DNA of 64,000 bases from Candidatus Omnitrophota bacterium (GTDB lineage: Bacteria > Omnitrophota > Gorgyraeia > Tantalellales > Tantalellaceae): contig JADHWG010000001.1 in assembly GCA_016783605.1 (NCBI GenBank), forward strand, positions 4,712 to 68,711, read 5' to 3'. Each line of letters begins with the position of its first letter. Position 1 is the first letter of the stretch. The translations under genes were made by a program, and so were the position numbers. Shown in pieces: positions 1,356 through 50,335 of the stretch. The notes beneath the pieces are model-generated. The model had not been told where the DNA came from and made no database searches. It worked only from the letters and a program-made list of their open reading frames with translations.

Positions 1356-1584
1356 ATACATTGTCACAATTCAGGTAACAAATCGATAGTGACCGGAACC
1401 ACCCTAACCATTTTGTCCCCTCGTCAATTAATCGGACAAGGCAGGCCTTCCCTACGAATAATATAAAACATGCCCAACAAATCCGTAGGGGCCGGGCCTG
1501 CCCGGCCCTTTTATTCCCATCATCATTGATAACCTTTATATGTCGGTGCCATTATAGACGGTTACCTCAATTGTGACAATGTAC
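1356..1584. mobile_element. MITE-2 copy (~229 bp), with an additional orphan right TIR at ~1281..1300
   Basis: Same TIRs and internal blocks as 61488..61752. Confidence 0.7.
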
Positions 1585-1611
1585 AAGGGGCGCCCTTTAT
1601 GGGTGCCCTTA

Positions 1612-2649: not shown

Positions 2650-3461
2650 CCATTATTTATCCAATCCAGGATGTCACCGAACACTTTTTCTTTTCCACGT
2701 TCTATCGAAAGCGCGTGACACATTTCGGGGTAAACAATAATTTTTTTATCTTTTGTTTTTACCTTTTTGAATATACACTTGCTGACTTCCGGGCTTGCCA
2801 ACGAATCTTTCCCCGCGAGTAAAAATAACACCGGTTTTTTGATCTTTTTGGCGCGAAACAAACTTTTTACTTGAAAAGTAAACGTGCACCATAAGAGTTT
2901 CGCGGTGGCAAATCGGTGTTCGGCGGGATCATTATCCAACAACGTTTGATACTCTTCGTCTCTGGTACACATTCCGGAATCAAACGGCATTTTGAACCGG
3001 CGGCAGGGATTATAAAAATTCGCGGCGAATATCCGAAAATATTCCATAAGAGAAAATTTCAACCGGCTGAAAAAAGCCGGTGAAATTAATATTGTACCGT
3101 CAAAAAGATCTTGACGTGATAACCCCGCGTGAAAAGCGATAAGAGCCCCCATGCTTTCTCCGAGAATAAAAACTTTCTTTCCGGGATGTTCCGCGCGCGC
3201 TTTGCGAGTGAGCGATTCGATATCTTTAAAATACACGTCGAAAGAATCAATATGCCCCTTTTCACAATCCGTTTCGCCGAACCCTTTAAGTTCGATCGCG
3301 TAAGACGAAATACCGCTTTCAAGAAAAAATTCCGCGAGCGCGTCCCACCTGGCACTCTGCGCGCCAAGCCCGTGAATCAGTACAAGAACCGTTTTCGTTT
3401 TGGGTGCCTGCCACTTGCGATACAAAACATCACTATTTTTGTCTTTTATTAAATCCTGCAT
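2637..3461 (-). CDS. alpha/beta-hydrolase (lysophospholipase / monoglyceride lipase-like)
   Basis: HGLG oxyanion motif and GESMG nucleophile elbow; overlaps the rlmN start and is likely co-transcribed with it. Confidence 0.65.
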   Translation of the reverse strand: MQDLIKDKNSDVLYRKWQAPKTKTVLVLIHGLGAQSARWDALAEFFLESGISSYAIELKGFGETDCEKGHIDSFDVYFKDIESLTRKARAEHPGKKVFILGESMGALIAFHAGLSRQDLFDGTILISPAFFSRLKFSLMEYFRIFAANFYNPCRRFKMPFDSGMCTRDEEYQTLLDNDPAEHRFATAKLLWCTFTFQVKSLFRAKKIKKPVLFLLAGKDSLASPEVSKCIFKKVKTKDKKIIVYPEMCHALSIERGKEKVFGDILDWINNGCGR

Positions 3462-3499
3462 GATCTCTTTTTCATGTATTTAGGGTTTTAAACTTTTCT

Positions 3500-3548
3500 G
3501 ATCATAGTTGACAACTTTAGCATATATTGACGTTTCACAGTTGTCAAC
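3500..3548 (-). promoter_or_regulatory. candidate sigma70 promoter embedded in an inverted repeat (TAGTTGACAACT-N23-AGTTGTCAACTA)
   Basis: On the minus strand there is TTGACA-17 nt-TATGCT upstream of the hydrolase-rlmN operon, and the -35 element lies within a 12-bp inverted repeat. Confidence 0.3.
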
Positions 3549-3714
3549 TAGTTGTAAACAAAATACATCAAAATGGGCATATTTGAGGGATAAAGGGCAC
3601 GGCATGCCGTGCCCCTACGAAGTTGCGGGCGGAGTATAAATATTTTTGGTTGGGCATTGTTGAGATTGCTTCGTCCCCGGGGGACGCCTGCGGGGACGAA
3701 GCAATTTTTGGATG

Positions 3715-6700
3715 TTAGAGCGACGAATCGATCTGATCTATACAATCTTTCCAGTCGCTTCGATCTATTCTTTCCATTGGTATGCCGAGGAGAAGTGTTT
3801 CCAACACCAAACGCATTAAAGTAACCGCGGCGCCTATTTGGAGCATCCTTCTTTGCCCGGTTGGAATTTCATTATAGGAAAGCATCAGATATAAGTCTTT
3901 TATGTCAATATCCTGACTGTGCGTTACGGCTCGCATCAGCTTTTTTATGTCCTGAGCGAGAGTTTGTTCACCATTTTCCGCTTTTTGGACATCTTTAGGA
4001 GTGAGACATCCTTGGAGAATACCTATTCTTAAAGCAGTAGACGCGTATAGCCACCCTTTGCCGCTTAATCCTTCTATGTCGGGAAGAGACAAAATTCTTG
4101 TTTGTTTAAGTATGTCCTCCAATTTCTCAGGCATATCAAAATCGCTTTCAGGCTGTATAGCTGTAATATTTGATTCGGTCGCGAATAAAACGGGTATCCT
4201 TACGTCTTCAGGACTTTTCGAACTTAGACTGCTACTGAGCAAATTTACCACACTTTGCTGATCTAACCCTGCTTCACTATTGTATTCTTTAATCTTTACC
4301 GCTCCTTTACCGAAAAGTTTATCCAGATTCCGCTGAGTTTTTTCTTTGGAACCATCACCTGAAAGGCTATCAGAAAACATCTCTTTAGGAACGATAAGAT
4401 CGATCTTGTTTTTCTTTACGAGAGAAGCGTGTTTTTCTAGCATTTCGTATACGTTGTAAACAGCCTGTTCTCCTTCTGTATTAGCATAACTCGCCTCAAC
4501 AATAACTGTCTCACTATGCAAAGTCTTTTTAATCCAGTAGTCGTTAATTTCACGTACCGTGGGTGGTTTTCGGAAATGAAATTTTCTGCCGTCCGGACTC
4601 TCAATTATCAGTCTTCCTTCAATAGAATCCCCGTCTTCCCGAATATCCATGTTTACATCTATCACCTCTCCCGGTCCGAATACAACAATTTTTTCATCTT
4701 TATCCACAAGAAGATTATTGTTATTGATTTCGATCTCTACCGCGCCGCTCTTTACAACAAGCCTATGAGGTCTTTGCACTCCCCCATGTGTTATCCTCTT
4801 TGGCGGACGTTTCTTTTCACCATTAATCGTGATCACGTCCACTTCCTCGGATTTCAGACCATAATCTTTAATAACACCTCTTTCTTCGCTTGCAACAATA
4901 TTTGTTCCTCCTATTTTTTTGCCTTGTTTAAACGGTTTTGCAATTGGAATTTTTCTTTTCAGGGCGGGAACAAATATGTCCAGGATTTCCGCTTCTTGTT
5001 CTAACGTCTCAACTGATACGCTCTTCGCGGAAGCCGGGATCACAAGCAAGAATCCTCCTTTCGCTAAAGACACAATCTTTGCGGTTTTTATATCTCCCCT
5101 CGCGTCTGTAACAGAAATAGTCGCTGATCCTGTTTTAACAGCAAGGATGTGAAGTCCGTGTGTTGATTCCTCCGGTTCTTCCCCTAAAGATAAAACGTTT
5201 TTTCCGTCTGATTGTGCCATAATAATTCTGTCCATTCTGTAAGCACTCTTTACCAGAATGTTGAGTTCCACGCTATCCTTTTCTTGCAATTCTTTTACCC
5301 CCATTTCAGGAAACACAATACCGTTTTCCCGAATAGCGTCTTTGCCTAAAAGTTCTTCGGGAAAATATTTTAGCGCGCTCTTTAACTTCGACAGTGTGAT
5401 CGTCTTCGGCGCATCCGGTGATTCTAAGTTACATGCATCAATATCACCTTCGAGATCCAAATAAAACGGAGCCCCGTTTTTGATAGTTTCGGTTATCGTT
5501 GCGTCTATCCCTTCAGGTTCTTCTACATCTTCATAATATCCTTTTTGCCTGGCAAGCGGCGCGGCTTTTTGCGGTTCAGATTCATTCGCGGTCATTTCGG
5601 CGTGTACTGCCATTACTTCGTTGATCGGGGTAATAGCGGGCATATGTTTCCTGTCCGATATAATTTGAATTGTTTTCGCGAGATCATCATCAAGCTTTGT
5701 TTTTAAATTACTAACATTTGTCGAGCGGTATTCATACTCGGGAATGATCGCCTGTATCCCGGCTTTTTCCATATTTGCAATCTGCCGAGGAGCCGACACT
5801 GCTGTCGGGTCAATTACAGCATGTGTCACACCGGCTGATGCCAAAAATTCCGCCGGAATAATACCGGTATTGGATCCTGTTCCGCGTGTCGCGATATTAT
5901 CTTCGCGACCGTCGATCGTTATTATTTTTTTCTTTTCATCTGTCGTCGCGTCCCGGAATAACTCGCTCACGTCTTCACCGCGAAGTTCGCGAAGAGCCGC
6001 GTCAATGTGAAGCCGGGAAATACAATGAAAAATGTTCACTTTTTCAAGATCCACGCCGGCGTCTTCATAACCTTGTATCCACGGCATCCAGGGACCTTTT
6101 TCGTTTGCCTTAAAGTTGTACAAAAGATCGAGCCCGTCTTTTACACCCGCGGCAGTTTCGGCTAATTTAACCGCGTTCGCGAGGGTGTAAATATAGCGCG
6201 CGACAAACGCGCCGTTATAACCGGCGACCTCTACCATGCCTTCAATGATATCAGCCTTTGTTCCGCCGCCGTAAGAGATTTTCAATCTTTTTCGGTATTC
6301 TTCGCGCAGGTCTTCGATCATATTGTTCCACCAATCGCCTTTCCAAGCATCTTTATCTTTAAAAACATAGCCAAATAGTGTCGCAATATTTTCCGCCTGA
6401 GTTATCTCCATTTCCGAAGGCACTCCCAATTCCAAAAACACAGGTATCTGCTTTTCCAGACGGAATTTCGCGACCTTCTCATGAAGAGATGCTCCACGAA
6501 TCGCTTTAACAGGTTCATACGGATTTATAAACTGGTACAGAACGGTTTCTATCGGCACATTTTCGAACAGTATTTTTATCTGATAGTTTATCTCATAGAC
6601 CGTTGAAATTTCTTCTATGATGCGGCGTTTTACTTCATCTAAGTTATTCAGTATTACCTCGATTGTTTTGGCTATTGTACCTTGTTGGTCTATTATTTTT

Positions 6701-8607
6701 TGCGTGCTAAGATCATTCCACCTTAGATCGTATTCTAAAAACGACGCGTATTTGTCCTCTATCGCGCCTATAATATCCGGGGTCTCATTATTCTCCGCGG
6801 CTTCTTTTGTAACATCATCTACCAGTTTTTTAAATTCAGCCTCAAGTAAAGGCTTCAAAATACCGTAATACGCACCGTATTCTTTATGTGTTTTAATGCC
6901 TTCTATCTCATCAATCTTCTGTACCGCGTCGACCTCATGGCTTAAAGCCCACACAGCTTTCATATCTTCATCATTTGTCAGGTTTTTTTTCAACGCTATT
7001 TCATCCGGCGTAACAGGAAAGAAACGTAAACCTCTTTCATGGTATTCCTTGTCCGTCATAAAGTCACCCCAAGGTCCGACGATCCTATATGCGGCTTTTT
7101 GAAATAAATCTCTTTGCGCGCGTATCGCCACAATACCCATATTCAGATAATCCCTTACCTCAGAATGCCCGATAGCAACCAGCATAGGCGCGCCGACAGG
7201 AATATCATCCGGCGTCATATCAGGCGTGACTATTGTGACAGGTCCTATCGGATCCCACTGGTACCAAACTTCGTTATTGAATCCTTTCACGTGGTTAATT
7301 TTCTTATTTTTAAGCCACAGCTCCTCGAGGATTTCTTCAGCGTCATCAGGTTTCTTGCTGATGAGCGTGGCAAATTGCTCTACGGTAAAGGGCGTATGTT
7401 TACCAAATACCTTTGCCATTTCATAATATCCTTCAAGAGATCCATCGTCTACAACAATTGTCTGCGCTATTATCTCTTCATTTCTGCGAAATATGTCCTC
7501 AAATTTCTTTTCCTGTTTTCGGAGCGCGCTTAGCCTTGCCATGATGGGCCGGATATCCGAGCCCTGCTGATTATTTACCCATTCTTCTTCGCTTTTGAAG
7601 CCAAATGCCGCGATCGCGTCAGACGTCAGTGCTATTAAGCCAAGCGCAATTCGCGTATGAATGTCTTCATGCTGTGCTAAAACTATTTTTTCCGATTCTG
7701 TGAGACGGTCATACGATGATTCCCTCATGTAGTAGTATTCCTCCACGCTTTCCAGACTTCCATATTTTTCATACTGTTTTCTTGTCTCTCTGGTACCGGG
7801 ATGGCATTCAATATCACTCGGCGCTCCAGTTGATTCAATGTATTTTTCGTAAAGTTCATCCGGCAAAACGATAAAATATCCACCGGTTGCGTTGTCTCTC
7901 CTGCCATACATTTTCATAAATTCTTCTTGTATTTTGGCCTTACCATTTGTTCTAAAGCTTACACTTATTTGCCTCTTCAGGTCTTCAATTGTAAGCGTGA
8001 TCGCCAGATTTAGCCTACCGTGCTCCTCCCGCGTCAGCGGTTTATTTCGATTCGCTCCGGTTCGGGCATACCACTCACCCGCCGACCGGGTTGGAAGACC
8101 GGCTTTTCCCCTTGCCCTTATTCTAAACTTATCGAATTCAACTTTGACGCGCGTCCTTATTTCATTCGGAATGTTTTCTTTGCCAAGATTTTTTTCATAT
8201 TTTCCTAAAAAATCCGTAAAAATCGTTTCCCAATCTTTGTCGTTTTCTACGAGTTTCATCCATTCGCTGTGCGCTTCTTTTTCGCTCTCAAAGCTAGGTA
8301 TCATCTCTTTTTTCATCCCATCAAGATAGCTCTCTACACATTTCCCGGTTGCTTCTCTGATCTTGTCAAGAACTCCGTCTTTGCTAATATCCTTGAACCA
8401 CTCTTTCAGGTTTTTCTCTACATCTTTGTCGAGTACAATCCTACTCCCAAATCCGAATTTTAAAGCTGTCGAGAGAGTGTCTTGTGTAGATTCCGGAACG
8501 ACAGAAAAACGCTCTGCCGCGAAAGTCGTATTGCTAAAAGAAAAAGCCAAAACTAAAAAAAGGCTTATTGTTTTACAGAACGTTGATTGTTTGAAATTAC
8601 TTTTCAT
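3715..8607 (-). CDS. giant secreted protein (1630 aa), function unknown; contains an HExxH (HEDIH) motif
   Basis: Long uninterrupted ORF with an N-terminal signal peptide (LFLVLAFSFSNTTFA). No family was recognised by eye. It has a single zincin-like HEDIH motif. Confidence 0.7.
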   Translation of the reverse strand: MKSNFKQSTFCKTISLFLVLAFSFSNTTFAAERFSVVPESTQDTLSTALKFGFGSRIVLDKDVEKNLKEWFKDISKDGVLDKIREATGKCVESYLDGMKKEMIPSFESEKEAHSEWMKLVENDKDWETIFTDFLGKYEKNLGKENIPNEIRTRVKVEFDKFRIRARGKAGLPTRSAGEWYARTGANRNKPLTREEHGRLNLAITLTIEDLKRQISVSFRTNGKAKIQEEFMKMYGRRDNATGGYFIVLPDELYEKYIESTGAPSDIECHPGTRETRKQYEKYGSLESVEEYYYMRESSYDRLTESEKIVLAQHEDIHTRIALGLIALTSDAIAAFGFKSEEEWVNNQQGSDIRPIMARLSALRKQEKKFEDIFRRNEEIIAQTIVVDDGSLEGYYEMAKVFGKHTPFTVEQFATLISKKPDDAEEILEELWLKNKKINHVKGFNNEVWYQWDPIGPVTIVTPDMTPDDIPVGAPMLVAIGHSEVRDYLNMGIVAIRAQRDLFQKAAYRIVGPWGDFMTDKEYHERGLRFFPVTPDEIALKKNLTNDEDMKAVWALSHEVDAVQKIDEIEGIKTHKEYGAYYGILKPLLEAEFKKLVDDVTKEAAENNETPDIIGAIEDKYASFLEYDLRWNDLSTQKIIDQQGTIAKTIEVILNNLDEVKRRIIEEISTVYEINYQIKILFENVPIETVLYQFINPYEPVKAIRGASLHEKVAKFRLEKQIPVFLELGVPSEMEITQAENIATLFGYVFKDKDAWKGDWWNNMIEDLREEYRKRLKISYGGGTKADIIEGMVEVAGYNGAFVARYIYTLANAVKLAETAAGVKDGLDLLYNFKANEKGPWMPWIQGYEDAGVDLEKVNIFHCISRLHIDAALRELRGEDVSELFRDATTDEKKKIITIDGREDNIATRGTGSNTGIIPAEFLASAGVTHAVIDPTAVSAPRQIANMEKAGIQAIIPEYEYRSTNVSNLKTKLDDDLAKTIQIISDRKHMPAITPINEVMAVHAEMTANESEPQKAAPLARQKGYYEDVEEPEGIDATITETIKNGAPFYLDLEGDIDACNLESPDAPKTITLSKLKSALKYFPEELLGKDAIRENGIVFPEMGVKELQEKDSVELNILVKSAYRMDRIIMAQSDGKNVLSLGEEPEESTHGLHILAVKTGSATISVTDARGDIKTAKIVSLAKGGFLLVIPASAKSVSVETLEQEAEILDIFVPALKRKIPIAKPFKQGKKIGGTNIVASEERGVIKDYGLKSEEVDVITINGEKKRPPKRITHGGVQRPHRLVVKSGAVEIEINNNNLLVDKDEKIVVFGPGEVIDVNMDIREDGDSIEGRLIIESPDGRKFHFRKPPTVREINDYWIKKTLHSETVIVEASYANTEGEQAVYNVYEMLEKHASLVKKNKIDLIVPKEMFSDSLSGDGSKEKTQRNLDKLFGKGAVKIKEYNSEAGLDQQSVVNLLSSSLSSKSPEDVRIPVLFATESNITAIQPESDFDMPEKLEDILKQTRILSLPDIEGLSGKGWLYASTALRIGILQGCLTPKDVQKAENGEQTLAQDIKKLMRAVTHSQDIDIKDLYLMLSYNEIPTGQRRMLQIGAAVTLMRLVLETLLLGIPMERIDRSDWKDCIDQIDSSL

Positions 8608-9092: not shown

Positions 9093-9545
9093 CTAAAGCA
9101 AATCAGGGGTTATTTCCCATAACAGTTTCCATTTTTCTTGGTATTCGAGACAAATTATGCCGGAATGCTTAAAGGTGATGCTTTCATTTTCTTCGTTTTC
9201 GAAGAGCAAGAGGGAGGTGAGTTTTCGTAAAAACGGGAGGTGCCCCACGATCATTATGTCTCTTCTTACGGCTTCCAATTCTTCTTTGATCTTGGCAACT
9301 TCATCATTAGGATTCAGATCAACTCGTTCATTTATCTCCGTTTTTTCGATATATTCAGTGATTATTTGTACGGTTTCGATCGAACGCATCTTTTTACTGT
9401 GCCATATGCTCGCGACACTGATCTTTTCCGCTTTTATGAACCGTCCCATTTTCTGAGTTTCGTCTTTGCCTTCTTCACTTAAGGGTTTTTGAGGATCTTG
9501 CTCCTCCGTCAAAGAAAGCCCGTGTTGGATCAAATAAAGTTTCAT
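9093..9545 (-). CDS. sixA: phosphohistidine phosphatase SixA (histidine phosphatase superfamily)
   Basis: MKLYLIQHG…RHG-type catalytic motif, ~150 aa. I moved the start to the internal Met because the N-terminal extension in the ORF track reads through a repeat. Confidence 0.65.
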   Translation of the reverse strand: MKLYLIQHGLSLTEEQDPQKPLSEEGKDETQKMGRFIKAEKISVASIWHSKKMRSIETVQIITEYIEKTEINERVDLNPNDEVAKIKEELEAVRRDIMIVGHLPFLRKLTSLLLFENEENESITFKHSGIICLEYQEKWKLLWEITPDLL

Positions 9546-9664
9546 ATGTCTACCCCCCTCTTTAATAACGTTAAAAAACTTTCTCTCCCGGAACCACCTC
9601 GTAGGTGGAACCGGTTGTTCCACCTACGAGGTGGTTCCGGTAAAGGGCACGGCATGCCGTGCCC

Positions 9665-10741: not shown

Positions 10742-10800
10742 AAACACCAACCTCGTAGGTTACTACCAACCTACGAGGTTGGTAGTAACCTACGAGGTTG
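10742..10800. repeat. family-B palindrome cluster (three CCTACGAGG units)
   Basis: aacctcgtaggttactaccaacctacgaggttggtagtaacctacgaggttgg. Confidence 0.7.
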
Positions 10801-17546: not shown

Positions 17547-18860
17547 CTACGAGGTGCAATTGGGGTATGAGTTGGAATTGTGGTTTGGGGTGATTTTATC
17601 AGCGCCGAAATATGGTTTTAATGCTTCGGGGATTGTAATTGAACCATCTTTTGTTTGATAAATTTCAAGGAGTGCCACTACAAGCCTTGGAAGCGCCACA
17701 CCGGACGCATTTAGTGTGTGTACATATTTTGGTTTTTGTTTTTTGTTTTTCGATTGATATTTTATATTCGCGCGGCGCGCCTGAAAATCTGAAAAAACTG
17801 AACAGCTTGATACTTCCAGCCATCTTTTGCTTCCCGGCGCCCAAAGTTCTATATCATAACATTTGTGCGCGGCAAAACTTATGTCGCTTGTGCAAAGTTC
17901 GAGTACGCGATATGGAAGATCCATTTTTTTTAGGATGTCTTCCGCGTTCCGGAGCAAAGTTTCCAGTTCTTTCATTGATTCATCGGGATGAGTGAACTTG
18001 ACCATTTCAACTTTATCGAATTGGTGTACGCGAATGAGTCCCCGCGTATCTTTACCGTAGGAACCGGCTTCTCTTCTAAAACACGCGGTTGACGCGGTAT
18101 AGTAGATGGGAAGCGATTCCTCTTTTATCACCTCATCCGCGTGAAGATTGGTAAGAGGGACTTCCGCCGTCGGGATAAGGAAAAGATCCTCTTCTTGGAT
18201 CTTATACATGTCTTCGGCAAGCTTTGGAAGTTGTCCGGTTCCCCTCATGCTCTTACTATTGGCTAACACTGGGGGACAAATCTCTTTATATCCGTGCTCT
18301 TTCACGTGCACGTCTATCATAAAGTTTATAAGCGCTCTCTCAAGTTTGGCTCCGGCGCCGACAAAAAGCGGGAATCCGGATCCTGTTATCTTTGCCGCGC
18401 GTTCAAAATCCAAGATCCCGTTTATCTTTCCAAGTTCAATGTGATCGCGAGGAGTAAACGATATTTTGGGGATCTTTCCCCATTCTCTTACCTTTTTATT
18501 GTCTTTTTCACTTTTCCCGACGGGCACGCTTTCATGCGGCACATTCGGGATCATATCAACAATCGTTTTAAATTTCTTTTCCACCTCGCCGAGCGTGTTA
18601 TCCAATTTGCTTATTTTTTCAGAAATTTTGTTAACTTTTTCTTTGGCGCCTTCGGCGTCTTTTTTTTGTTTTATCAATTCACCGATCTTTTTTGAGGCTT
18701 CGTTTTTTTTGCGTTTTAAGGCCTCGACTTCTTGAAGCAAATCTCTTCTGATTTGGTCAACTTTTAAAAATTTATCCACCAGTTCAGGTTTATCCGATCT
18801 ATTCTTAAGCGCTTTTTTTACAATATCGGAGTTTTCTCTTATGAATTTTGCCTCAAGCAT
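17547..18860 (-). CDS. serS: seryl-tRNA synthetase
   Basis: N-terminal coiled-coil arm plus class II aaRS core (437 aa). The last ~13 codons and the stop are supplied by a family-B palindromic repeat. Confidence 0.9.
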   Translation of the reverse strand: MLEAKFIRENSDIVKKALKNRSDKPELVDKFLKVDQIRRDLLQEVEALKRKKNEASKKIGELIKQKKDAEGAKEKVNKISEKISKLDNTLGEVEKKFKTIVDMIPNVPHESVPVGKSEKDNKKVREWGKIPKISFTPRDHIELGKINGILDFERAAKITGSGFPLFVGAGAKLERALINFMIDVHVKEHGYKEICPPVLANSKSMRGTGQLPKLAEDMYKIQEEDLFLIPTAEVPLTNLHADEVIKEESLPIYYTASTACFRREAGSYGKDTRGLIRVHQFDKVEMVKFTHPDESMKELETLLRNAEDILKKMDLPYRVLELCTSDISFAAHKCYDIELWAPGSKRWLEVSSCSVFSDFQARRANIKYQSKNKKQKPKYVHTLNASGVALPRLVVALLEIYQTKDGSITIPEALKPYFGADKITPNHNSNSYPNCTS

Positions 18861-18937
18861 CTCTTTTTTCCTTTCTTATAAAGCTTTTTTACTTTGGAAC
18901 TTGTATTATTTATAACACGTCCTTATTATTTATGCAA

Positions 18938-19899
18938 CTACCCCTTAATAACGCCTATTGGACGCATTTTTGCGACTTTTTTTGATAGTCCGGCGTTTTG
19001 GACTATATCTACCACATTCGTTACGTCTTTATACGCGTCTGACGCTTCTTCTCCAAGCGTATCTCGACCTGTATATCGTACAATAATGCCCTTATCGGCG
19101 AGTTCTCGAACGATGGAACGCCCTCGTGTGATCTTTTTGGCCAATGTACGCGACATCAATCTTCCCGCGCCGTGACATGTGGAATTAAACGTCTCTCGCG
19201 CCTCTTTTGTTCCGCTTAAAAGATAGGAACACGTGCCCATATCTCCCGGAATTATTACGGGCTGACCCGTTCGTCTATATTTTACCGGCAGGTCTTTGTG
19301 TCCCGGACCTAACGCGCGTGTGGCTCCCTTACGATGAACGCATAACGCGCGTAATTTGCCTTTAATTTCATAATTTTCTATTTTTCCGATATTATGCGCC
19401 ACATCATAAACCAAATGTAGACCTAAAGATTCAGCACTCGCGCCAAACACTTCTTCAAAAACTCCGCGTGTTAAATGCATTATCACTTGCCGGTTACACC
19501 ACGCGTAATTCGCCGCCGCGCGCATGGCGCCGAGATACGCTTCGCCTTCTTCGCTTTTAACCGGCACGCACGCGAGTTGACGATCCGGCATGTTTATTCC
19601 GAATTTTGACATCAGTTTTATCATGCTTGCCGCGTAATCACCGCACACTTGGTGTCCGAATCCTCTGGAGCCTGTATGTATCATTACCGTAATTTGTCCT
19701 TTTCTATACCGAATATTTTTGCTTCTTTTTCGCTGTAAATTTCATCCACCACCTGCACTTCAAGAAAATGGTTGCCCGAACCTAACGTCCCGGACTGTTT
19801 TTGTCCGCGCTGACGCGCGCGGAGCAACATCTTTTTCAAAAAGATCCGTCCGCATAAACCTTACGCCGCAATTTGATACTACAAAATTGTTAGCGATAA
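18938..19899 (-). pseudogene. rtcB: rtcB RNA ligase, disrupted: -1 frameshift in an A-run plus loss of the N-terminal ~120+ aa
   Basis: The C-terminal 248-aa ORF carries MIHTGSRGFGHQ…HGAGR. An upstream different frame carries [19 protein letters not shown]…FGIEK and terminates where the C-frame begins ([10 protein letters not shown]). Only ~90 bp, all of it repeat, separates this from the archease stop. Confidence 0.6.
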
Positions 19900-19912
19900 A
19901 ATTATGAACCGC

Positions 19913-19976
19913 GAAACAACCTCGTAGGTTGAACCTACGAGGTTGACGGAGGGGTGCAACTTACGAGGTTGTTTCG
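19913..19976. repeat. family-B triloop-hairpin palindrome cluster (CCTCGTAGG / CCTACGAGG) nested in a larger inverted repeat
   Basis: ccgcgaaacaacctcgtaggttgaacctacgaggttg…cttacgaggttgtttcgcgg; occupies the position where the rtcB 5' region should be. Confidence 0.7.
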
Positions 19977-19992
19977 CGGTGGAATTGGGAGT

Positions 19993-20412
19993 TTATACGT
20001 CGAAAACTATGGCGACCTCATATCCCATAATGGTTTCTTTTATTACTACGTCGTGGTACGTCGCGGCCTTTATTCCCAATTTTATCCTGTCATCTTCTTC
20101 TATCATTTGTCCCTTTACGTCCGCGATGAGTTTATTGTTGTATAAACTTACGATATTGAACTCATAGAACAGTACACTTTTTTTATATCCCGCGTACAAA
20201 ACTTCATTAAGCCACGCGATAAGAAGACTTTCCGTATCGGAAGCTTCCACTTCTATTCTTTGTGTGTTTGTACACACCAATCCATTAAGATCCGCCATCA
20301 AATCAAACATCGCGTATGCCGCGTTCTCAAAAAGTTTCGGTAAATTGTTTCCTCGAATTAAAGCGGCAACATCAGCGGTATGCGGGATTTGTTTGTAGTT
20401 TTTCATGACCAC
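19993..20412 (-). CDS. archease (RtcB cofactor)
   Basis: 139 aa with the N-terminal HTADVA motif typical of archease. Confidence 0.75.
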   Translation of the reverse strand: MVMKNYKQIPHTADVAALIRGNNLPKLFENAAYAMFDLMADLNGLVCTNTQRIEVEASDTESLLIAWLNEVLYAGYKKSVLFYEFNIVSLYNNKLIADVKGQMIEEDDRIKLGIKAATYHDVVIKETIMGYEVAIVFDV

Positions 20413-20516
20413 CTCCTCATGAAATTATAGCTAAAAAAGAATATATGAGCCCATATGCCCGTATCTTTATTATAGCAAAGAGCGCGCGCTTAAACAGCTA
20501 AAAATAATTTGGCAAA

Positions 20517-20573
20517 CAAAAGACAAAAACCGCGGGAGCATATATATGCATTCCCGCGGTTTTTGTCTTTTAT
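20517..20573. terminator. bidirectional intrinsic terminator (20-bp perfect stem)
   Basis: aaaagacaaaaaccgcggga-[gcatatatatgcat]-tcccgcggtttttgtctttt. Confidence 0.6.
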
Positions 20574-20590
20574 TGTAACGCTATTGATAA

Positions 20591-20674
20591 CTACTTCTTT
20601 TTTCTCGCCTTTGCTTTTTTGGGAGCGCTTTTCTTACATTCCTTCTTAGCACTTTTTTTAGCACTTTTTTTCAT
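20591..20674 (-). CDS. 27-aa Lys/Ala-rich peptide (MKKSAKKSAKKECKKSAPKKAKARKKK)
   Basis: Strong Shine-Dalgarno site (GAGGAGGTG) 7 nt upstream of the ATG, immediately after the LysW-like gene and followed by the terminator above. Not in the ORF track because it is shorter than 60 aa. Confidence 0.4.
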   Translation of the reverse strand: MKKSAKKSAKKECKKSAPKKAKARKKK

Positions 20675-20703
20675 ATTTCACCTCCTCATCAGAAATATAC
20701 ATA

Positions 20704-20937
20704 CTATTCTCCCCATCTATCACGTTCATCGTCTCCGTAAAAATCGTGAAAATCAAAATTTTCCTCTTCTTCTTCGGATTCTTCTATTTCTCGGAGTCTT
20801 ACAACAGGATCGACCCCCACTACTTCCAATTCTGCTTCACAATTCAAACAATAAATTATATCCCCAAGTTCAACTTCGTCTTCTATTTCTATGGCATCCA
20901 AACAACTAGGACACTTTGTTATCTCTCGCTTAACCAT
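20704..20937 (-). CDS. LysW/ArgW-like amino-group carrier protein (Zn-ribbon with C-terminal …DRWGE)
   Basis: CPSC…CLNC zinc ribbon, an AELEVVGVDPV segment matching the LysW core, an acidic tail, and a terminal WGE like LysW's EDWGE. Confidence 0.55.
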   Translation of the reverse strand: MVKREITKCPSCLDAIEIEDEVELGDIIYCLNCEAELEVVGVDPVVRLREIEESEEEEENFDFHDFYGDDERDRWGE

Positions 20938-20976
20938 TTCCTCTCCTCAAATATTATTGATTTATTTAAAAATATT

Positions 20977-21309
20977 TTATTCCTCTTCTTCGTATAGGTA
21001 TATTGACACAATCTGATTCTTCCCGTCTTTAACTATACATTCTACTGACACCTCACTGCCCGCTTTAATCTCCTCCAAAGAATCTATATTCTCCAATTCC
21101 GTATCCGCGGTAATTTCGTATATCATGCTCTTTTCCGTATCAAGATCAAAATCATACTCATTGAGAGTAACGGAACCGTCCGAAATACTCACAACTGTCC
21201 CATACGCAGAATCTACCAAATCCTCTTGTTCCTGAGCAACAGCAAACACAGAAAACATTGTCACCGATAAAACTACACTTATTACCGCCATTAAAAAAAA
21301 TTTTCTCAT
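20977..21309 (-). CDS. small secreted acidic protein
   Basis: Signal peptide; 110 aa; overlaps the arsR-family gene by 4 nt. Confidence 0.45.
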   Translation of the reverse strand: MRKFFLMAVISVVLSVTMFSVFAVAQEQEDLVDSAYGTVVSISDGSVTLNEYDFDLDTEKSMIYEITADTELENIDSLEEIKAGSEVSVECIVKDGKNQIVSIYLYEEEE

Positions 21310-21665
21310 TTAATTTTCCTCCTTTTTTTGTTGTTTTTTCTACTTTCCAATTTTTTAAAATCTTCTTTGAATACCGCTAAGTCTTTTAGTCCATTTGTAA
21401 TTGAATTAAGTAGTTCTTTGTGCGCTGTATTTGTAGGGCTTGCTAAAAAATAATGTACGTTATTCCCCTCCCTCCTATCTCCGACAATACCTGTCAACCT
21501 TAACCGCGTAAGATGTTTAGATATGTTTGACTGATTTTTATCAAGTATTTCACAAAGTTCGGTCACATTTATTTCCCGCTTGTGTTTAAGAAGGTTAATT
21601 ATTCTTAAGCGTGTATCATCAGCTAACGATTTTAGTATTTGTCGGGCTTTTTTAATTTTCATCAT
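21306..21665 (-). CDS. ArsR/SmtB-family transcriptional regulator
   Basis: LADDTRLRIINLL…ELCEIL…QSNISKHL helix-turn-helix (HTH) motif. Confidence 0.8.
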   Translation of the reverse strand: MMKIKKARQILKSLADDTRLRIINLLKHKREINVTELCEILDKNQSNISKHLTRLRLTGIVGDRREGNNVHYFLASPTNTAHKELLNSITNGLKDLAVFKEDFKKLESRKNNKKRRKIK

Positions 21666-21689
21666 ATCTCATCCTAGTGCACCAAAATA

Positions 21690-21713
21690 CAGATTAAAGC
21701 ATATGAGTATATG
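21690..21713. promoter_or_regulatory. operator-like inverted repeat gcatatgag-N6-ctcatatgc upstream of the arsR-family gene
   Basis: 9-bp perfect arms located 25 bp upstream of the regulator start; ArsR/SmtB operators are AT-rich inverted repeats. A weaker copy (atatgagcccatat) lies at ~20447 upstream of archease. Confidence 0.3.
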
Positions 21714-21864
21714 CTCATATGCGAATGTAGTTTACTATAAAATTGCCCTAAGTCAAGAGCAAAAGATAACTTTTTTCATAGGAATATTTCTAAAAATTCT
21801 CTTAAAAATAGAGGCAAATCCCAAGGCAGGAATACAACAAAAATAGCCGTTTATAGGCTTAGAT

Positions 21865-22518
21865 TTAGAACGCTATTTTTACTTTGAGCCCTATTGCGTT
21901 GTTATATGTCCATTTTTTATTATTTTTATTCAGTTCCCACAGATAAAAAACATCTGTTTTCAGCTGTTTTAACCATTTCGCTTTTAGTCCCAGATATAAA
22001 CGATTTCGTGTAAGTTGATCTCCATAAAAATCCACAAAAACTTCGTCGGCGGCATAAGGATTTATATGAAATTTGGTCAATTTCCAGGGAGAGAAAACTG
22101 AAAATTTATTTCTATATCTCCACTTAGGAGTCCTTCCATCACCACACCTTAGTTCAAGGCGGTTTCTGTCCGCAATTTCCATATTCTGCCACGCTTTCTT
22201 AAGAATGACCTCACCGTATGGACGGTTTTCTCCTTTCCACCGGTCGGCTTTTTTTTCGTATATCTGGCGATAAGCCAATCCAAGATCAAGCCCCTTTGTC
22301 ACATTATATGTAACACCCAAATCCGTATGTTCATAATATAACACTGACATATCGCCGCCTATTCGCAGTTCCTCTTCAACCTTTAGTTTCAATTTGTCAT
22401 TAACTTTTTTCTCAATGGTTTCCGCGTTCCAAAACTGTAGATCTCCGTTCTCAAAAGCAAAACTCGGAACAACTAAAAATACATTGATAATAAGAATCCC
22501 AATTAATATCTTTTGCAT
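21865..22518 (-). CDS. DUF2490-like outer-membrane beta-barrel protein
   Basis: Signal peptide, alternating amphipathic strands, terminal aromatic residue (F). Confidence 0.45.
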   Translation of the reverse strand: MQKILIGILIINVFLVVPSFAFENGDLQFWNAETIEKKVNDKLKLKVEEELRIGGDMSVLYYEHTDLGVTYNVTKGLDLGLAYRQIYEKKADRWKGENRPYGEVILKKAWQNMEIADRNRLELRCGDGRTPKWRYRNKFSVFSPWKLTKFHINPYAADEVFVDFYGDQLTRNRLYLGLKAKWLKQLKTDVFYLWELNKNNKKWTYNNAIGLKVKIAF

Positions 22519-22520
22519 TT

Positions 22521-24179
22521 TTATCCTTTCTGTATTTTCATTTTTCCAGCTACACCTTGCGCAATATTTGTTAAATGATCGCCTATTTTTTCAAAATTAT
22601 CAACCAAATCAATAAAAACTAATCCTGCTTTTAAATTACATATGCCTTCATTCAACCGATTAACATGTCTATTCTTTAGTTCTTTTTGTAAATTGTTTAT
22701 TGTTATCTCGTGCGCTAAAACTTGTTCTGCTTTGTCAATATCTCTATTCTTCAGAGCATCTTTGGTATCTGACATCATTTCCCTAAGCTCCCTCCACAGA
22801 TCGTTTAATTCTTCATTGGCTTCATTTGAAAAAGAAAGCTTTTCATCTTTTTTTCTTTCAAATAGCTCAACAATATTTTCAGAATGGTCTCCGATCCTTT
22901 CGATATCATTAACGCTGTGAATTAATACCGGAAGCTCTTCCGATTCTTCCTGCGGGATTTCACGTTCTGAAAGCTCAACAAGGTATTGGGTTATTTCTGA
23001 CTGAAGCCCGTCTACAATTTGCTCTAAATTTGAAACTGTCCTCAAAGGACTTTTATAATTACCCAAAAAAGCTTTTACAGCACTAGAGACGGATTCGCAT
23101 GCTAAATCCAACATCCGCACACTCTCCATGCGCGCCTGCTGCATAGCTATTGGCGGGGTATCTAATAAATGTTTTTCTAAATATTGAGCGCCCATCTCAA
23201 CCGAATCTTTTCTTTTTGGGACCATCCAAATGCTGATTTTCTCAAGAAATCCTACAAATGGTAAAAACACTATAGTGTTAAACACATTGAACACACTATG
23301 AGCAACTGCAATATAAAACATTACGTTTTGTGTGGTTAATTGGCCCGGAATTATAAAGTTAACTCCCTTAATAAACCAGCCTGTATATACGAAAAAAAGC
23401 ATATACGTTACGCCTATTACGTTAAACAATGTATGTGCCATGGCCGCACGGCGGGCATTTAAATTAGTGCCTATCGCGGCTAATTGCGCGGTAATGGTTG
23501 TTCCTATATTGTCGCCAAGTATTATCGGAATAGCCGCGGGAAAAGTTATAAGACCATTGAAGGCTAAAACCTGCACTATCGCGATAGTAGCGCTTGAACT
23601 TTGCAAAAGTACTGTAAAAATAATTCCGATCAAAACCCCCAGCAGAGGATTATTGCTAAAAGTAACGAATACAGTTTTAATATGCGCGCTTTGTTTTAAA
23701 GGTTCAAAAGCATCTTTCAGAAATGAAAGCCCGATAAAAAGCATACCAAAACCCATAAGCACCTGTCCCCAAAATCTTACATTTCGGGTTCTTCCTAGAT
23801 GCATCATACCGAATCCCACACCGATAGCCGGAAGAGCATAATTGGTAATCTTGAAAATTCCCATTGATGAAACCAGCCATGCAGTAAACGTTGTCCCAAT
23901 GTTGGCTCCCATGATAACACTAATGGCTTGTTTTAAAACCAATAGTCCCGCATTGACAAACCCTACTACCATAACAGTAGTCGCACTGGAAGACTGGATT
24001 AAACACGTTACCCCGGCACCGACTAAAACGCCTACCACAGAAATTTTAGTTGCCATGTGAAGAATGTTTTTTATTTTTTCACCAGCTATTTTTTTCAATC
24101 CTTTTGACATAAATTGCATGCCGAGAAAGAAAAATCCAAGCCCTCCAATCAAATTGAAAATTAGTTCTTTCATAATCAT
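22521..24179 (-). CDS. Na+/phosphate symporter (NptA family) with C-terminal PhoU-like domains
   Basis: 552 aa with duplicated Na/Pi cotransporter membrane repeats and a C-terminal PhoU-like helical region. Confidence 0.8.
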   Translation of the reverse strand: MIMKELIFNLIGGLGFFFLGMQFMSKGLKKIAGEKIKNILHMATKISVVGVLVGAGVTCLIQSSSATTVMVVGFVNAGLLVLKQAISVIMGANIGTTFTAWLVSSMGIFKITNYALPAIGVGFGMMHLGRTRNVRFWGQVLMGFGMLFIGLSFLKDAFEPLKQSAHIKTVFVTFSNNPLLGVLIGIIFTVLLQSSSATIAIVQVLAFNGLITFPAAIPIILGDNIGTTITAQLAAIGTNLNARRAAMAHTLFNVIGVTYMLFFVYTGWFIKGVNFIIPGQLTTQNVMFYIAVAHSVFNVFNTIVFLPFVGFLEKISIWMVPKRKDSVEMGAQYLEKHLLDTPPIAMQQARMESVRMLDLACESVSSAVKAFLGNYKSPLRTVSNLEQIVDGLQSEITQYLVELSEREIPQEESEELPVLIHSVNDIERIGDHSENIVELFERKKDEKLSFSNEANEELNDLWRELREMMSDTKDALKNRDIDKAEQVLAHEITINNLQKELKNRHVNRLNEGICNLKAGLVFIDLVDNFEKIGDHLTNIAQGVAGKMKIQKG

Positions 24180-24280
24180 TTTGGTTTCTCCTGATTGTTT
24201 TTGTCTAAATGTTTAAAGAAAGTATATATCTTTCATGTGAGTAAATGATGAAGAAAATGTGAAGATTTGATGAAGAAGGG

Positions 24281-24407
24281 GCTGTCGCAAAATACCCCCA
24301 AAATGTCATCCTCGCAAACGCGGGGATCTATAAGTCTAAGAATTACAATATGTTACAGATCCCCGCGTCCGCGAGGATGACAGAAAAAGGTGTTTTGCGA
24401 CAGTCCC
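24281..24407. mobile_element. MITE-like inverted-repeat element (relative of MITE-1); TIR GGGRCTGTCGCAAAAYACC
   Basis: ~125-bp imperfect hairpin with ~19-bp TIRs and possible AAGAA flanking duplication. It shares tcatcct / gatct(c)tata motifs with MITE-1. Confidence 0.5.
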
Positions 24408-24430
24408 AAGAATGATTCTGGTTTTTCGTA

Positions 24431-25858
24431 TTATTTAGGAAATATCATTGTAATTTTTGTACCTTTGCCAACTTCGCTGTCTATTTGAATATCTCCTTTT
24501 TGAAGTTTCATAATATGTTTTACTATCGCAAGACCCAGCCCCGTCCCTCCGACTTCACGGGAACGAGCTTTATCTACCCTATAAAACCTTTCAAAAACAC
24601 GAATCAAATGTTCTTTAGGTATTCCGATACCGTTATCTTCAATAGTAGCAACAAGATTTGCGCCAACATCAAAAATAGAGACTTTAATCTGCCCTTGAGT
24701 TCCGGTATATTTAACGGCGTTATCAATTAAATTTATAAAAATTTGGGCGACTTGTTCTTTATCGCCTCTCAGAAAAAAATCGTCACCTCTATAATCTACA
24801 TTAAGTGTCTGTTTTTTTAAAGAAACTACATTGTTGAATTCAGAAACAACTTCATCCAGCAAATATCTTATGTCAAATTCGGCCTGTTCAACTTTTCCTT
24901 CTAAATGCTCTATTTCTGTAAGCGCAAGTAAATCATTCACAATATTATTGATCCGTTTTGTATGTTTTTTTATTATTTCTAGAAACTTCTTAGCATTCTT
25001 TTTGTCGTTAATCGCGCCATCTTCAAGTGTTTCAATAAATCCTTGTATTGATGTAAGCGGAGTTTTTAATTCATGTGATACATTTGCTACAAAATCCGTT
25101 CTAATTTTATCCATCTTTTTTAAGTTGGATATTTTGTGCTCTAGTTTATCCGCCATAAGATTGAACGAATCTGCTAATTCTTCTAATTCGTTATTTGTTT
25201 TAATCTTCACTCTTTTGGTTAAATCTCCTTCCGCAATGCTCCGCGCCATATCGTTCATATTACGAAAAGGTAAACTTATTTTTCTGGAAATAAAATATCC
25301 TATGACTAAAGTTATCAAAATAGCCATAACCCCGCCTAAAACAAAAAACCTACGGATAATTCCCAACTCTTTCCGGATATCTACAAGTGGAACTGCCACA
25401 CGAATAAAACCTTGTTCTATACCATTTTCAATTACAGGAACCGCGATATACTTCATGTAAAACTTAAGAGTTTCACTGTAACGAGTACTCTCTCCTACCC
25501 CTTCTTCATATGCGGTAACAATTTCTTCCCTATCTACATGATTTTCCATCAAATCAGAGACTGTTTCAGAATCGTATACTACTTTCCCGCTTTTATCTAT
25601 AACACTGATTCTTAAATTCAATAATTCAGAAAGTTCTTCCGTTTTGCTATTAATGACATCATATCTCTTTCCAGTTAAGTCCTTTTCTAAAATGTTTCTT
25701 ACCAGCATTAAATTGCTCGTTAATTTGTCAGATATTTTTTCTTCATAATATTTTTCAATCCGTGAAGTAACTGAAAAATTTAAAACAAATATTGCAACCA
25801 ATATCAGAAATATTTCCGCTCCCAGAATTTTCCATATTATTTTAGTACGCATAGTCAT
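24431..25858 (-). CDS. sensor histidine kinase (TM-HAMP-HisKA-HATPase), PhoR-like
   Basis: H-box SHELKTPLTSI; N/G1/G2 boxes; adjacent to the Na/Pi transporter. Confidence 0.85.
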   Translation of the reverse strand: MTMRTKIIWKILGAEIFLILVAIFVLNFSVTSRIEKYYEEKISDKLTSNLMLVRNILEKDLTGKRYDVINSKTEELSELLNLRISVIDKSGKVVYDSETVSDLMENHVDREEIVTAYEEGVGESTRYSETLKFYMKYIAVPVIENGIEQGFIRVAVPLVDIRKELGIIRRFFVLGGVMAILITLVIGYFISRKISLPFRNMNDMARSIAEGDLTKRVKIKTNNELEELADSFNLMADKLEHKISNLKKMDKIRTDFVANVSHELKTPLTSIQGFIETLEDGAINDKKNAKKFLEIIKKHTKRINNIVNDLLALTEIEHLEGKVEQAEFDIRYLLDEVVSEFNNVVSLKKQTLNVDYRGDDFFLRGDKEQVAQIFINLIDNAVKYTGTQGQIKVSIFDVGANLVATIEDNGIGIPKEHLIRVFERFYRVDKARSREVGGTGLGLAIVKHIMKLQKGDIQIDSEVGKGTKITMIFPK

Positions 25859-26532
25859 TCCTCTTTAAGCCTGTATCCGGCACCGCGAACCGTTTCGATA
25901 TAATTTCGCGCTGTTTTAAGTTTTTTTCTAATGGATTTTATATGCGCATCAATCGTTCTGTCATAACTTTCAGAATCATATCCAAAGATATTATCTAAAA
26001 GTTTATTTCTGGTTATCACTACCCCGGGCCGCTGAATCATAAATTCTAAAATTTTAAACTCGGTATGTGTCAACAAAACCTCTTTGTCACGGACATACAC
26101 CTTGTGTTTTACACTATCAACCAATAAAATCCCCCTCGCCGTCTTTTGAGACAACTTTGGGCTATCCGCTCTTCTTAAAACCGCCTTAATCCTTGCACTT
26201 AATTCCCTCGGACTAAAAGGTTTTGTTAAATAGTCGTCCGCCCCCAATTCTAAACCGGCAACCTTATCTGCTTCCCGCGACTTTGCCGTAAGCATAATAA
26301 GAGGGATACACCTTGTTAGTTCATTATTTTTTAAAAGTCTACAAACTTCAAAACCATCAATATCAGGAAGCATCAAATCCAAAAGAACTATATCCGGTCT
26401 ATCTTTTTTTGCCGAAGAGAAGCCTTGCTTGCCGGTAAATGAAGCCAATACGGCATACTGTTCCTTCTCTAAATTGTATTTGATCATCTCAACAATATCT
26501 TTATCATCTTCTATGATAAGAACTTTCTTCAT
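25855..26532 (-). CDS. OmpR/PhoB-family response regulator
   Basis: REC domain (LIIEDD…D…K) plus a winged-helix C-terminus. I moved the start to MKKVLII. Confidence 0.85.
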   Translation of the reverse strand: MKKVLIIEDDKDIVEMIKYNLEKEQYAVLASFTGKQGFSSAKKDRPDIVLLDLMLPDIDGFEVCRLLKNNELTRCIPLIMLTAKSREADKVAGLELGADDYLTKPFSPRELSARIKAVLRRADSPKLSQKTARGILLVDSVKHKVYVRDKEVLLTHTEFKILEFMIQRPGVVITRNKLLDNIFGYDSESYDRTIDAHIKSIRKKLKTARNYIETVRGAGYRLKEE

Positions 26533-26590
26533 AAGCGAACCCTTCTTTACAAAATTACATTCACCATTCTCACTCAATTTATATGTCACA

Positions 26591-27952
26591 TTATAAATCT
26601 ACAACTTGAATTTCATTTGTATCGTTTATACTATTCATAAAGTCGTAAATTTTATTATCAAAAATTATGTCACTTTCAGCGATCGGTCTTTTTAAGCGGA
26701 TGCCTTCCAGGGCGCGGCATCGGCTTAACGCGACATAGGTCTGTCCATGAGTAAAAGCGCCGCGGCCGATATCTATCATAACTTTATCGAACGTCTGCCC
26801 CTGACTTTTGTGTATTGTTATCGCCCATGCCAATTTTATTGGATATTGTTTAAAACAACCGATAACTTTTTCCTCGATATTGTCAGTTTTTTTATTGTGA
26901 GAATATCGTATTTTTTCCCAAGTCATTTTGGGAACGTCACAAATTTTCTGATCTATACTCACCCGTATCAAACTGTCGGAGAGTTCTACAACCCTGCATA
27001 TCGTCCCGTTCACCCATTGTTTTTTAGGATCGTTTTTAACCATGATCACCTGGGCGCCGGTTTTCAGCGTAATATCTTTTTCGACCGGATAATCTTTATC
27101 TTTAAATTCTCCTTCTATTGAGGCGGAATATGTGAATTCTTCATTCGAAATTTGAGCGAGACGCTTTTTGTTAATTCTTTCCGCGACACTATTCGTTGCC
27201 GTTAACGTCACAACTCCTTCATTCTCCTCTCGATTATCACTATCTACTCTTTCGTTCAAACCAAAAAGATCGTCCGCGGCGCATATCTTTTCTCGGACTT
27301 TATTTAAGAGAGAGATAAATTTCTCATCTTTTTGCCTGTATATTTTACTGAGATCGATCGTTCTCAATTTAATTTCTCTAAATACGTTAGCGCTGAAAAA
27401 ATATGGACTGGTGTATCTCTGTTTTAGAATATCTTCGAATTCTTTGTTAACGACCGGCGGCAACTGAAAAAGGTCCCCGAACAAGATCATCCTCGCGCCT
27501 CCAAACGCCGAATTCATTTCATTTCTGTTCAATCTAAGCGAAGAATCTATCCCATCCAGCAGATCCGCCCTTACCATAGACGCCTCATCAATAACAACAG
27601 CATCAATGCGATGCATCAGATCATCTTTATATAAGCGTTTAATGTGGTCGCGCAGAATAAACCTCGGCGGAAACCTGAAAAAGGAATGAATCGTTTGTCC
27701 ATGCACTTTGATAGCCGCGACCCCGGTCGGCGCCAATACAACGATATTCTTTCGGGTGTTCATCCTGAAATATTCCAAGAGAGTTGACTTCCCCGTTCCG
27801 GCTTTCCCCGTAATAAAAATATGTTCACGAGAATTCTCCAAAAGTTCAAATGCCGCGCGAAATTCGTCATTAAACTCAAAGTCGGTCGGAAGTTCCGTTT
27901 TTGTCTCTCGTACAAGTTCATTTTTAAAATCATCCGGCATACTTAACTCCAA
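26591..27952 (-). CDS. Pif1/RecD-family (AAA_30) DNA helicase
   Basis: Walker A GKAGTGKST, VIDEASM, and C-terminal AITIHKSQGQTFD / GQTYVALSR motifs. Confidence 0.7.
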   Translation of the reverse strand: MELSMPDDFKNELVRETKTELPTDFEFNDEFRAAFELLENSREHIFITGKAGTGKSTLLEYFRMNTRKNIVVLAPTGVAAIKVHGQTIHSFFRFPPRFILRDHIKRLYKDDLMHRIDAVVIDEASMVRADLLDGIDSSLRLNRNEMNSAFGGARMILFGDLFQLPPVVNKEFEDILKQRYTSPYFFSANVFREIKLRTIDLSKIYRQKDEKFISLLNKVREKICAADDLFGLNERVDSDNREENEGVVTLTATNSVAERINKKRLAQISNEEFTYSASIEGEFKDKDYPVEKDITLKTGAQVIMVKNDPKKQWVNGTICRVVELSDSLIRVSIDQKICDVPKMTWEKIRYSHNKKTDNIEEKVIGCFKQYPIKLAWAITIHKSQGQTFDKVMIDIGRGAFTHGQTYVALSRCRALEGIRLKRPIAESDIIFDNKIYDFMNSINDTNEIQVVDL

Positions 27953-31361: not shown

Positions 31362-31508
31362 TTCAACCAGTTTTCACTACTCCACCAACTAACACCAATT
31401 CACGGGCGGACGCAAGGCCCGCCCCTACACTTTACCATCCCCGATTCCACCTACGAGGTGGAATCGGGGGGACTAACGATTTTAAAGGTTTTTCTTTTGG
31501 ACTTTAAA

Positions 31509-39982: not shown

Positions 39983-40047
39983 CCCCCTCGACAACCTCGT
40001 AGATTGCACCTCGTAGGTGCAACCTACGAGGTTGTCGAGGGGGTAAA
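39983..40047. repeat. family-B triloop-hairpin palindrome cluster
   Basis: caacctcgtagattgcacctcgtaggtgcaacctacgaggttg. Confidence 0.7.
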
Positions 40048-50269: not shown

Positions 50270-50335
50270 AATGCAATCACCCCTTCGTTAGTATATCGTT
50301 GCCATAACCCTCTTGACAACCTCGTAGGTTGATCA

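Follow-up and report, generated by a model that had tools for sequence, protein, structure and literature searches.

The RtcB 3′-phosphate/5′-hydroxyl RNA ligase of Pyrococcus horikoshii (PhoRtcB, PH1602; PDB 1UC2 and 4DWQ) is the described protein against which the gene studied here can best be read. It is an archaeal/eukaryal-type RtcB of ~480 amino acids (PF01139), in which metal M1 is coordinated by His234, His329 and Cys98, metal M2 is coordinated by Cys98, Asp95 and His203, and His404 is the nucleophile that becomes guanylylated (PMC9745838). In an RtcB mutant where the cysteine was changed to alanine, all ligation steps were abolished (PMC9745838).

In many archaea and bacteria the rtcB gene adjoins the gene of its activator, archease. 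This is also the case in the DNA stretch of 64,000 nucleotides that we analysed (hereafter the window), where archease lies directly upstream of rtcB. An intact relative of the window rtcB encodes a 485-aa protein (P0001) that aligns end to end with PH1602 (E 2.8e-174). Similarly to PhoRtcB, the window gene has still recognisable codons for the equivalents of Cys98, His203, His234, His329 and His404. In contrast to PhoRtcB, it is split over two frames and has no start region, and is a pseudogene rather than a functional member of the family. As compared to other archeases, that of the window has nothing unusual apart from the fact that its adjacent partner gene is dead. From the evidence presented below, we propose with high confidence that the locus holds the orthologous, once functional, archaeal-type rtcB gene of an Omnitrophota-like bacterium, which was recently inactivated and is decaying by deletion.

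Three lesions separate the window rtcB gene from an intact relative

Using the frame-corrected remnant as the query, a protein search returned thousands of RtcB proteins. The best-scoring matches are nearly all 485 aa long and, where a source name is given, all of them come from Candidatus Omnitrophota (or Omnitrophica) or Ca. Makaraimicrobium. The top match, P0001, is an intact RtcB with 95% identity, which is encoded by the contig L001 (Logan SRR24302411) in the following gene order: archease, a 141-nt spacer and full-length rtcB. The lesions were defined by blastn and global alignment of L001 with the window, both sequences being read directly.

On the minus strand of the window, the order is archease (20406/20412-19993), a cluster of palindromic repeats (19980-19908), a 33-nt filler or spacer remnant (19907-19875; tcataattttatcgctaacaattttgtagtatc), three pieces of rtcB (18938-19874 in total) and serS (18860-17547). 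Fragment A (19814..19874, minus strand; codons 103-122) is 96.7% identical to L001 8120-8180 (blastn) and covers P0001 residues 103-122 in frame -1 (tblastn). Its NCGVR motif, with the bridging Cys ligand, is seen in the third-frame translation just 3′ of the filler. Fragment B (19704..19813, minus strand; codons ~194-230) is 96.4% identical to L001 8396-8505 and covers P0001 residues 192-235 in frame -2 (tblastn); it is part of a 51-aa ORF (19684-19839) that matches positions 134-180 of the Pfam RtcB profile (E 1.5e-15). Fragment C (18938..19703, minus strand; codons 232-485 and the stop) has 91.8% nucleotide identity to L001 8507-9270 and covers P0001 residues 222-485 (tblastn). The annotated 248-aa ORF (18938-19684, minus strand) begins at the native internal Met238 and matches only the Pfam RtcB positions 184-426 of 426 (E 1.9e-98). 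The remnants are still matched by the RtcB family profile (PF01139), of which positions 1-133 are absent from the window save for the 20-codon piece, and no continuous ORF extends across the whole RtcB domain (about 400-485 aa), which is found as three fragments in two frames. In a promoter/terminator consensus scan of 18700-20800, the number of matches was that expected from shuffled sequence.

The following lesions account for this organisation. First, the 5′ part of the gene is lost: L001 7815-8119 (305 nt, codons 1-102) and the GGAGG start region have no counterpart in the window, where the homology resumes at 19874. This loss removes the start region, the ribosome-binding site and the Asp ligand, in place of which stand the palindrome cluster and the 33 nt of unmatched sequence. 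This filler has no homology to L001 in blastn and global alignment, and a short-word BLAST of the filler and repeat region against the window found no filler source, the filler having only chance-level matches of 10-14 nt; the deletion junction is located within 19875..19907 or at its 3′ edge. Second, an internal out-of-frame deletion eliminated 215 nt (L001 ~8181-8395, roughly codons 123-193). Its junction (19814..19818, minus strand) is a GCGCG microhomology, such that the flanks L001 8120-8180 and 8391/8396-9276 match window 19874-19814 and 19818/19813-18934, respectively, with a 5-nt overlap on the window. Third, the A5 run of L001 (8506-8510) is an A4 run in the window (19700..19703, minus strand), which reads gaaaagg as compared to gaaaaagg in L001. 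This loss of one nucleotide, the single 1-nt gap in the global alignment, generates a frameshift. In all, the gene has lost about 174 of its 485 codons, among them the Asp95 equivalent. Because 215 + 1 = 216, fragments A and C are in the same frame, from which the intervening fragment B is shifted and in which it has stops; the frame shared by A and C is a one-in-three coincidence, which restores nothing.

Regarding the mutational mechanisms, the 215-nt deletion between two GCGC(G) microhomologies may have occurred through replication slippage or illegitimate recombination, one A may have been dropped from the A5 run through slippage, and codons 1-102 were lost, together with the translation start region, beside the REP-like hairpin cluster. 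JGI metagenome contigs, scanned with degenerate DNA for a lineage-specific 15-residue peptide, gave no match and no close relative, and provided no intermediate alleles with which to order the lesions.

These data bear out the original prediction that rtcB is a pseudogene and that the locus is in decay, with three independent lesions rather than the two that had been described; alignment to the orthologue (P0001/L001) confirmed the decay and showed the two-lesion anatomy to be incomplete. The annotated ORF is indeed the C-terminal 248 aa of RtcB, and the upstream RtcB piece does lie in another frame with one A missing; the A-run, which had been placed at ~19707..19712, is at 19700-19703. Of the N-terminal ~120 aa thought to be missing in one block, codons 1-102 are gone, codons 103-122 survive, and the separate internal deletion removed roughly codons 123-193. 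Similarly, the presumed absence of the Cys and Asp ligands holds for Asp only, the Cys codon having survived in the 20-codon fragment at 19874-19814. Finally, the repeat cluster, regarded as the sole separator between rtcB and the archease stop, is present at 19908-19980, 33 nt from the deletion junction, and the internal deletion and the Cys fragment had been overlooked.

No reading frame of the locus carries the complete active site

We transposed the PhoRtcB residues onto the window through the P0001-1UC2 alignment. The only ligand physically lost is Asp95, the equivalent codon of which is deleted. The Cys98-equivalent codon (19870-19868) occurs in fragment A; the His203-equivalent codon (19770-19768) in fragment B; and the codons equivalent to His234, His329 and His404 (19678-19676, 19396-19394 and 19174-19172, respectively) in fragment C. 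No reading frame yields a polypeptide with all six active-site residues, i.e. the complete ligand set and His404. Since no single product can hold these six residues, it is safe to infer that the ligase activity would have been lost.

It could be argued that the remains of the locus are still used, either because the 248-aa ORF is translated for a new role, through the TAATG overlap or a -1 slippage on A-AAG, or because archease operates independently of RtcB. Indeed, the 51-aa ORF ends in a TAA that overlaps the ATG opening the 248-aa ORF (TAATG, 19686-19682, minus strand); a -1 slip on GAA-AAG-G would be expected to rebuild the native ...IEKGQIT... sequence; the C-terminal fragment has a dN/dS of 0.11; and archease is intact. 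However, this ATG is the native Met238 codon, and the TAATG overlap, which follows automatically from the frameshift, is an accidental coupling signal. Furthermore, any product would lack both Asp95 and Cys98, and without frameshifting the His203 equivalent as well, leaving the two metal sites incomplete, when the Cys-to-Ala mutation alone suffices to abolish all ligation steps (PMC9745838). The low dN/dS integrates all of the divergence from L001, as a recent inactivation predicts, and the R388T replacement hits an Arg conserved in 60 of 63 homologues. Among the shorter RtcB matches retrieved, those of 270, 360 and 388 aa, on contigs of 915, 1135 and 1512 nt, respectively, must be cut by contig ends, these contigs being below the full-gene length. 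We consider such a residual use of the fragments, or of archease, as highly improbable, and favour the view of a decaying pseudogene. Programmed frameshifting or recoding was considered and rejected: a perfect -1 slip at A-AAG joins fragments B and C only, and the product is still devoid of codons 1-193.

The lesions recur in separately assembled contigs

A search for proteins identical to the product of the 248-aa ORF pointed to seven contigs, four of which were compared to the window: ENA ERZ24794672 NODE_3960 (coverage 47), ENA ERZ24794679 NODE_58133 (coverage 3.7), ENA ERZ24794666 NODE_990869 (coverage 3.1) and the Logan assembly of ERR13325277 (L004), which begins inside the repeat at window 19942. 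All four contigs align gaplessly across the locus with 99.9-100% identity. All of them have both the internal deletion and the A4 stretch, and the three ENA contigs (L002, L003 and L005) also extend over the 5′ junction. Because L003 and L005 carry one and two SNPs as compared to the window, respectively, the four contigs are not copies of one file. At the level of assembled contigs, each assembly sampled from the population has the pseudogene lesions as its consensus, although a minority of the population may still carry an intact allele. The three ENA assemblies have accession numbers in a consecutive range and may stem from one study, in which case they would represent one clonal population. 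Among 5.8 billion proteins, there was no intact allele closer than P0001.

These contigs bear on the possibility, also raised in the original prediction, that the apparent pseudogene is an assembly artefact, a collapse at the repeat and/or a homopolymer miscall masking a true genome with an intact rtcB. In favour of an artefact, a multi-copy palindromic repeat stands 33 nt away from the 5′ lesion and the Logan contig breaks within it at 19942, and homopolymer errors happen with some sequencing chemistries. However, the internal deletion and A4 run are found in four separately assembled contigs, and the 5′ junction in three of them, with coverages from 3x to 47x and two pipelines (SPAdes-style NODE contigs and Logan). 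In addition, the 215-nt deletion and the A4 run, i.e. two of the three lesions, sit away from any repeat, and the missing 305 nt of coding sequence are not flanked in L001 by a repeat pair that could drive a collapse. An A4/A5 run is also too short for a systematic short-read homopolymer error. As each of the four other contigs confirms, without gaps, the lesions within its span, a misassembly is very unlikely, to the point of being effectively refuted, and we regard the lesions as genuine.

A palindromic repeat family stands next to the 5′ deletion

The cluster at 19908..19980 is a REP-like nested palindrome, which comprises three copies of the core CAACCTCGTAGGTTG and the outer arms ACCGCGAAACAACCTCGTA. 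Its inverted arms of 28 nt are 93% complementary and, as RNA, it is predicted to fold with -42.2 kcal/mol (z -10). The repeat core has 17 matches at eight loci in the window, as compared to 0.03 expected. Similarly to REP/BIME-type repeats, the members of this family are short, intergenic, multi-copy, single or clustered, and endowed with strong predicted hairpins; they differ from REP/BIME-type repeats by their lineage-specific core ACCTCGTAGGT and their locus-specific outer arms.

The intact L001 contig harbours one copy of the core (7733-7743) in its archease-rtcB spacer, preceded by a similar 'ccattccacc' stretch. Since the intact L001 has the core in the same spacer, a repeat at this position is older than the 5′ deletion and does not inactivate rtcB by itself. 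The idea that the N-terminal deletion took place at the repeat is not upheld, as the junction is 33 nt off and the same repeat family already exists in the intact spacer. We can only speculate that hairpin-induced replication trouble promoted the 5′ deletion.

The family is common to the window and L001. Its loci are 849-891, 9594-9634, 10748-10800, 19908-19980, 31447-31461, 39992-40034, 50317-50331 and 54561-54598 in the window, and 7733-7743 in L001. The conserved core is ACCTCGTAGGT / CAACCTCGTAGGTTG or CCACCTCGTAGGTGG, and the outer stem arms differ at each locus.

The decayed gene occupies the conserved rtcB position

The downstream neighbour of the rtcB remnant, serS (17547..18860, minus strand; Pfam Seryl_tRNA_N and tRNA-synt_2b), is intact and served as a synteny anchor. 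In three other Omnitrophota loci, L012 and L013 (both for protein P0003) and L014 (for protein P0002), the order is archease, rtcB (485 aa), serS and then a ~229-aa ORF. An intact orthologue therefore stands at the same syntenic position in L001 (archease-rtcB) and in L012, L013 and L014 (also with serS). That the window has the same neighbours implies that its decayed rtcB is the ancestral resident of the locus, i.e. the orthologous copy.

Some bacteria hold more than one RtcB and, with 64 kb only of the genome in view, a second intact rtcB might be located elsewhere, in which case the present locus would be a redundant paralogue being lost and archease would still have a partner. We regard this possibility as unlikely on the following grounds. 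First, the decayed copy stands in the conserved archease-rtcB-serS slot, which holds the single copy detected in the relatives. Second, a tblastn search with the full-length P0001 against the 64-kb window, a test suggested at the outset for the whole assembly, retrieved three fragments there (residues 103-122, 192-235 and 222-485) and neither a second nor an intact copy. A P0001 scan of the GTDB representative genomes, a set without the window's genome, found only distant RtcBs, with 52-61% identity. Loss of the resident orthologue itself is thus the reading that we retain.

Probably recent inactivation of rtcB and persistence of archease

The archease gene (19993..20406, minus strand) encodes 137 aa from the ATG at 20406, or 139 aa if the GTG at 20412 is used. 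The protein matches Pfam PF01951 over positions 1-136 of 136 (E 4.5e-33; 114.9 bits for a gathering cut-off of 25), in agreement with the initial view of a full-length archease, and is 82.5% identical to the L001 archease. An alignment with three relatives showed that the motifs PHTADxA, FENAAxAMFD, IKAATYHD and VVFDV are kept, and comparison with L001, L012, L013 and L014 revealed neither frameshift nor stop. Polarisation of its amino-acid changes assigned nine to the window and five to L001, with ten ambiguous, a difference that is not significant and shows no relaxation.

Nei-Gojobori estimates were obtained for the window versus L001. The dN/dS of the rtcB remnants (310 codons) is 0.11, a value similar to those of functional neighbours (0.10-0.14): archease (137 codons, 0.14), DUF2490 (217 codons, 0.10) and a PIF1-like helicase (449 codons, 0.11). 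There are no in-frame stops in the native frames of the rtcB fragments. Of the polarised replacements in rtcB, five are window-derived, two are L001-derived and nine are ambiguous; the relative-rate test is not significant, and this excess of five versus two at conserved sites is too small alone to show relaxed selection. One of the window-derived replacements is R388T. Neutrality along the whole branch (~0.13 substitutions per site, ~700 nonsynonymous sites) predicts ~90 replacements, when no more than 14 are attributable to the window branch. With replacements so far below the neutral prediction, the inactivation would represent a small final part of the branch. Judging from the dN/dS of 0.11 and the lack of in-frame stops, we infer that the inactivation is recent.

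The rtcB remnant (18938-19874; dS 0.26, or 0.11-0.45 by segment) shows much less synonymous divergence from L001 than archease (19993-20406; 0.67), DUF2490 (21865-22518; 0.74) and PIF1 (26591-27940; 0.47). This contrast suggests a mosaic ancestry of, or a recombination across, the rtcB locus.

Most simply, archease is still intact since there was too little time for it to decay. That it was selected for an RtcB-independent role once its only known partner was lost, or that the 248-aa RtcB fragment is expressed and was co-opted, seems to us most doubtful. Should either be true, this lineage would constitute a natural experiment parting archease function from RtcB.

As regards annotation, the two ORFs of 51 and 248 aa, each of which bears the RtcB label, should be joined into a single entry marked as a pseudogene, and RtcB-type RNA repair or ligation should not be attributed to the organism. 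The locus provides a small, clean example of bacterial gene decay, in which several deletions precede visible substitutions, and it indicates that RtcB would be dispensable in at least one Omnitrophota population, though the clade otherwise keeps the archease-rtcB-serS order. As a case of gene decay it is ordinary and has little importance beyond annotation.

Gene content around the locus

The surroundings of archease-rtcB differ between the window and L001. Upstream of archease, the window harbours an ArsR-type HTH gene, a 110-aa ORF and a LysW-like gene (20416-21862) and, between PIF1 and DUF2490, a response regulator, a histidine kinase and a Na/Pi-cotransporter (22530-26590). L001 has instead a hydrolase, an AMP-binding/acyltransferase gene and an MFS transporter (1441-7250). 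The turnover of accessory genes around the locus appears to be rapid. After the rtcB stop and before the conserved sequence that precedes serS, L001 possesses an insert of ~100 nt (9273-9373), absent from the window, in which a direct repeat (tgtcatcccggaatccgctt) occurs twice. In the window, the interval from the LysW-like zinc-ribbon gene to archease contains a tiny ORF for a very basic peptide of 27 aa (MKKSAKKSAKKECKKSAPKKAKARKKK; ~20591-20674, minus strand), which is preceded by a GGAGG ribosome-binding site and followed on its 3′ side by a strong hairpin with a T-run (20520-20570).
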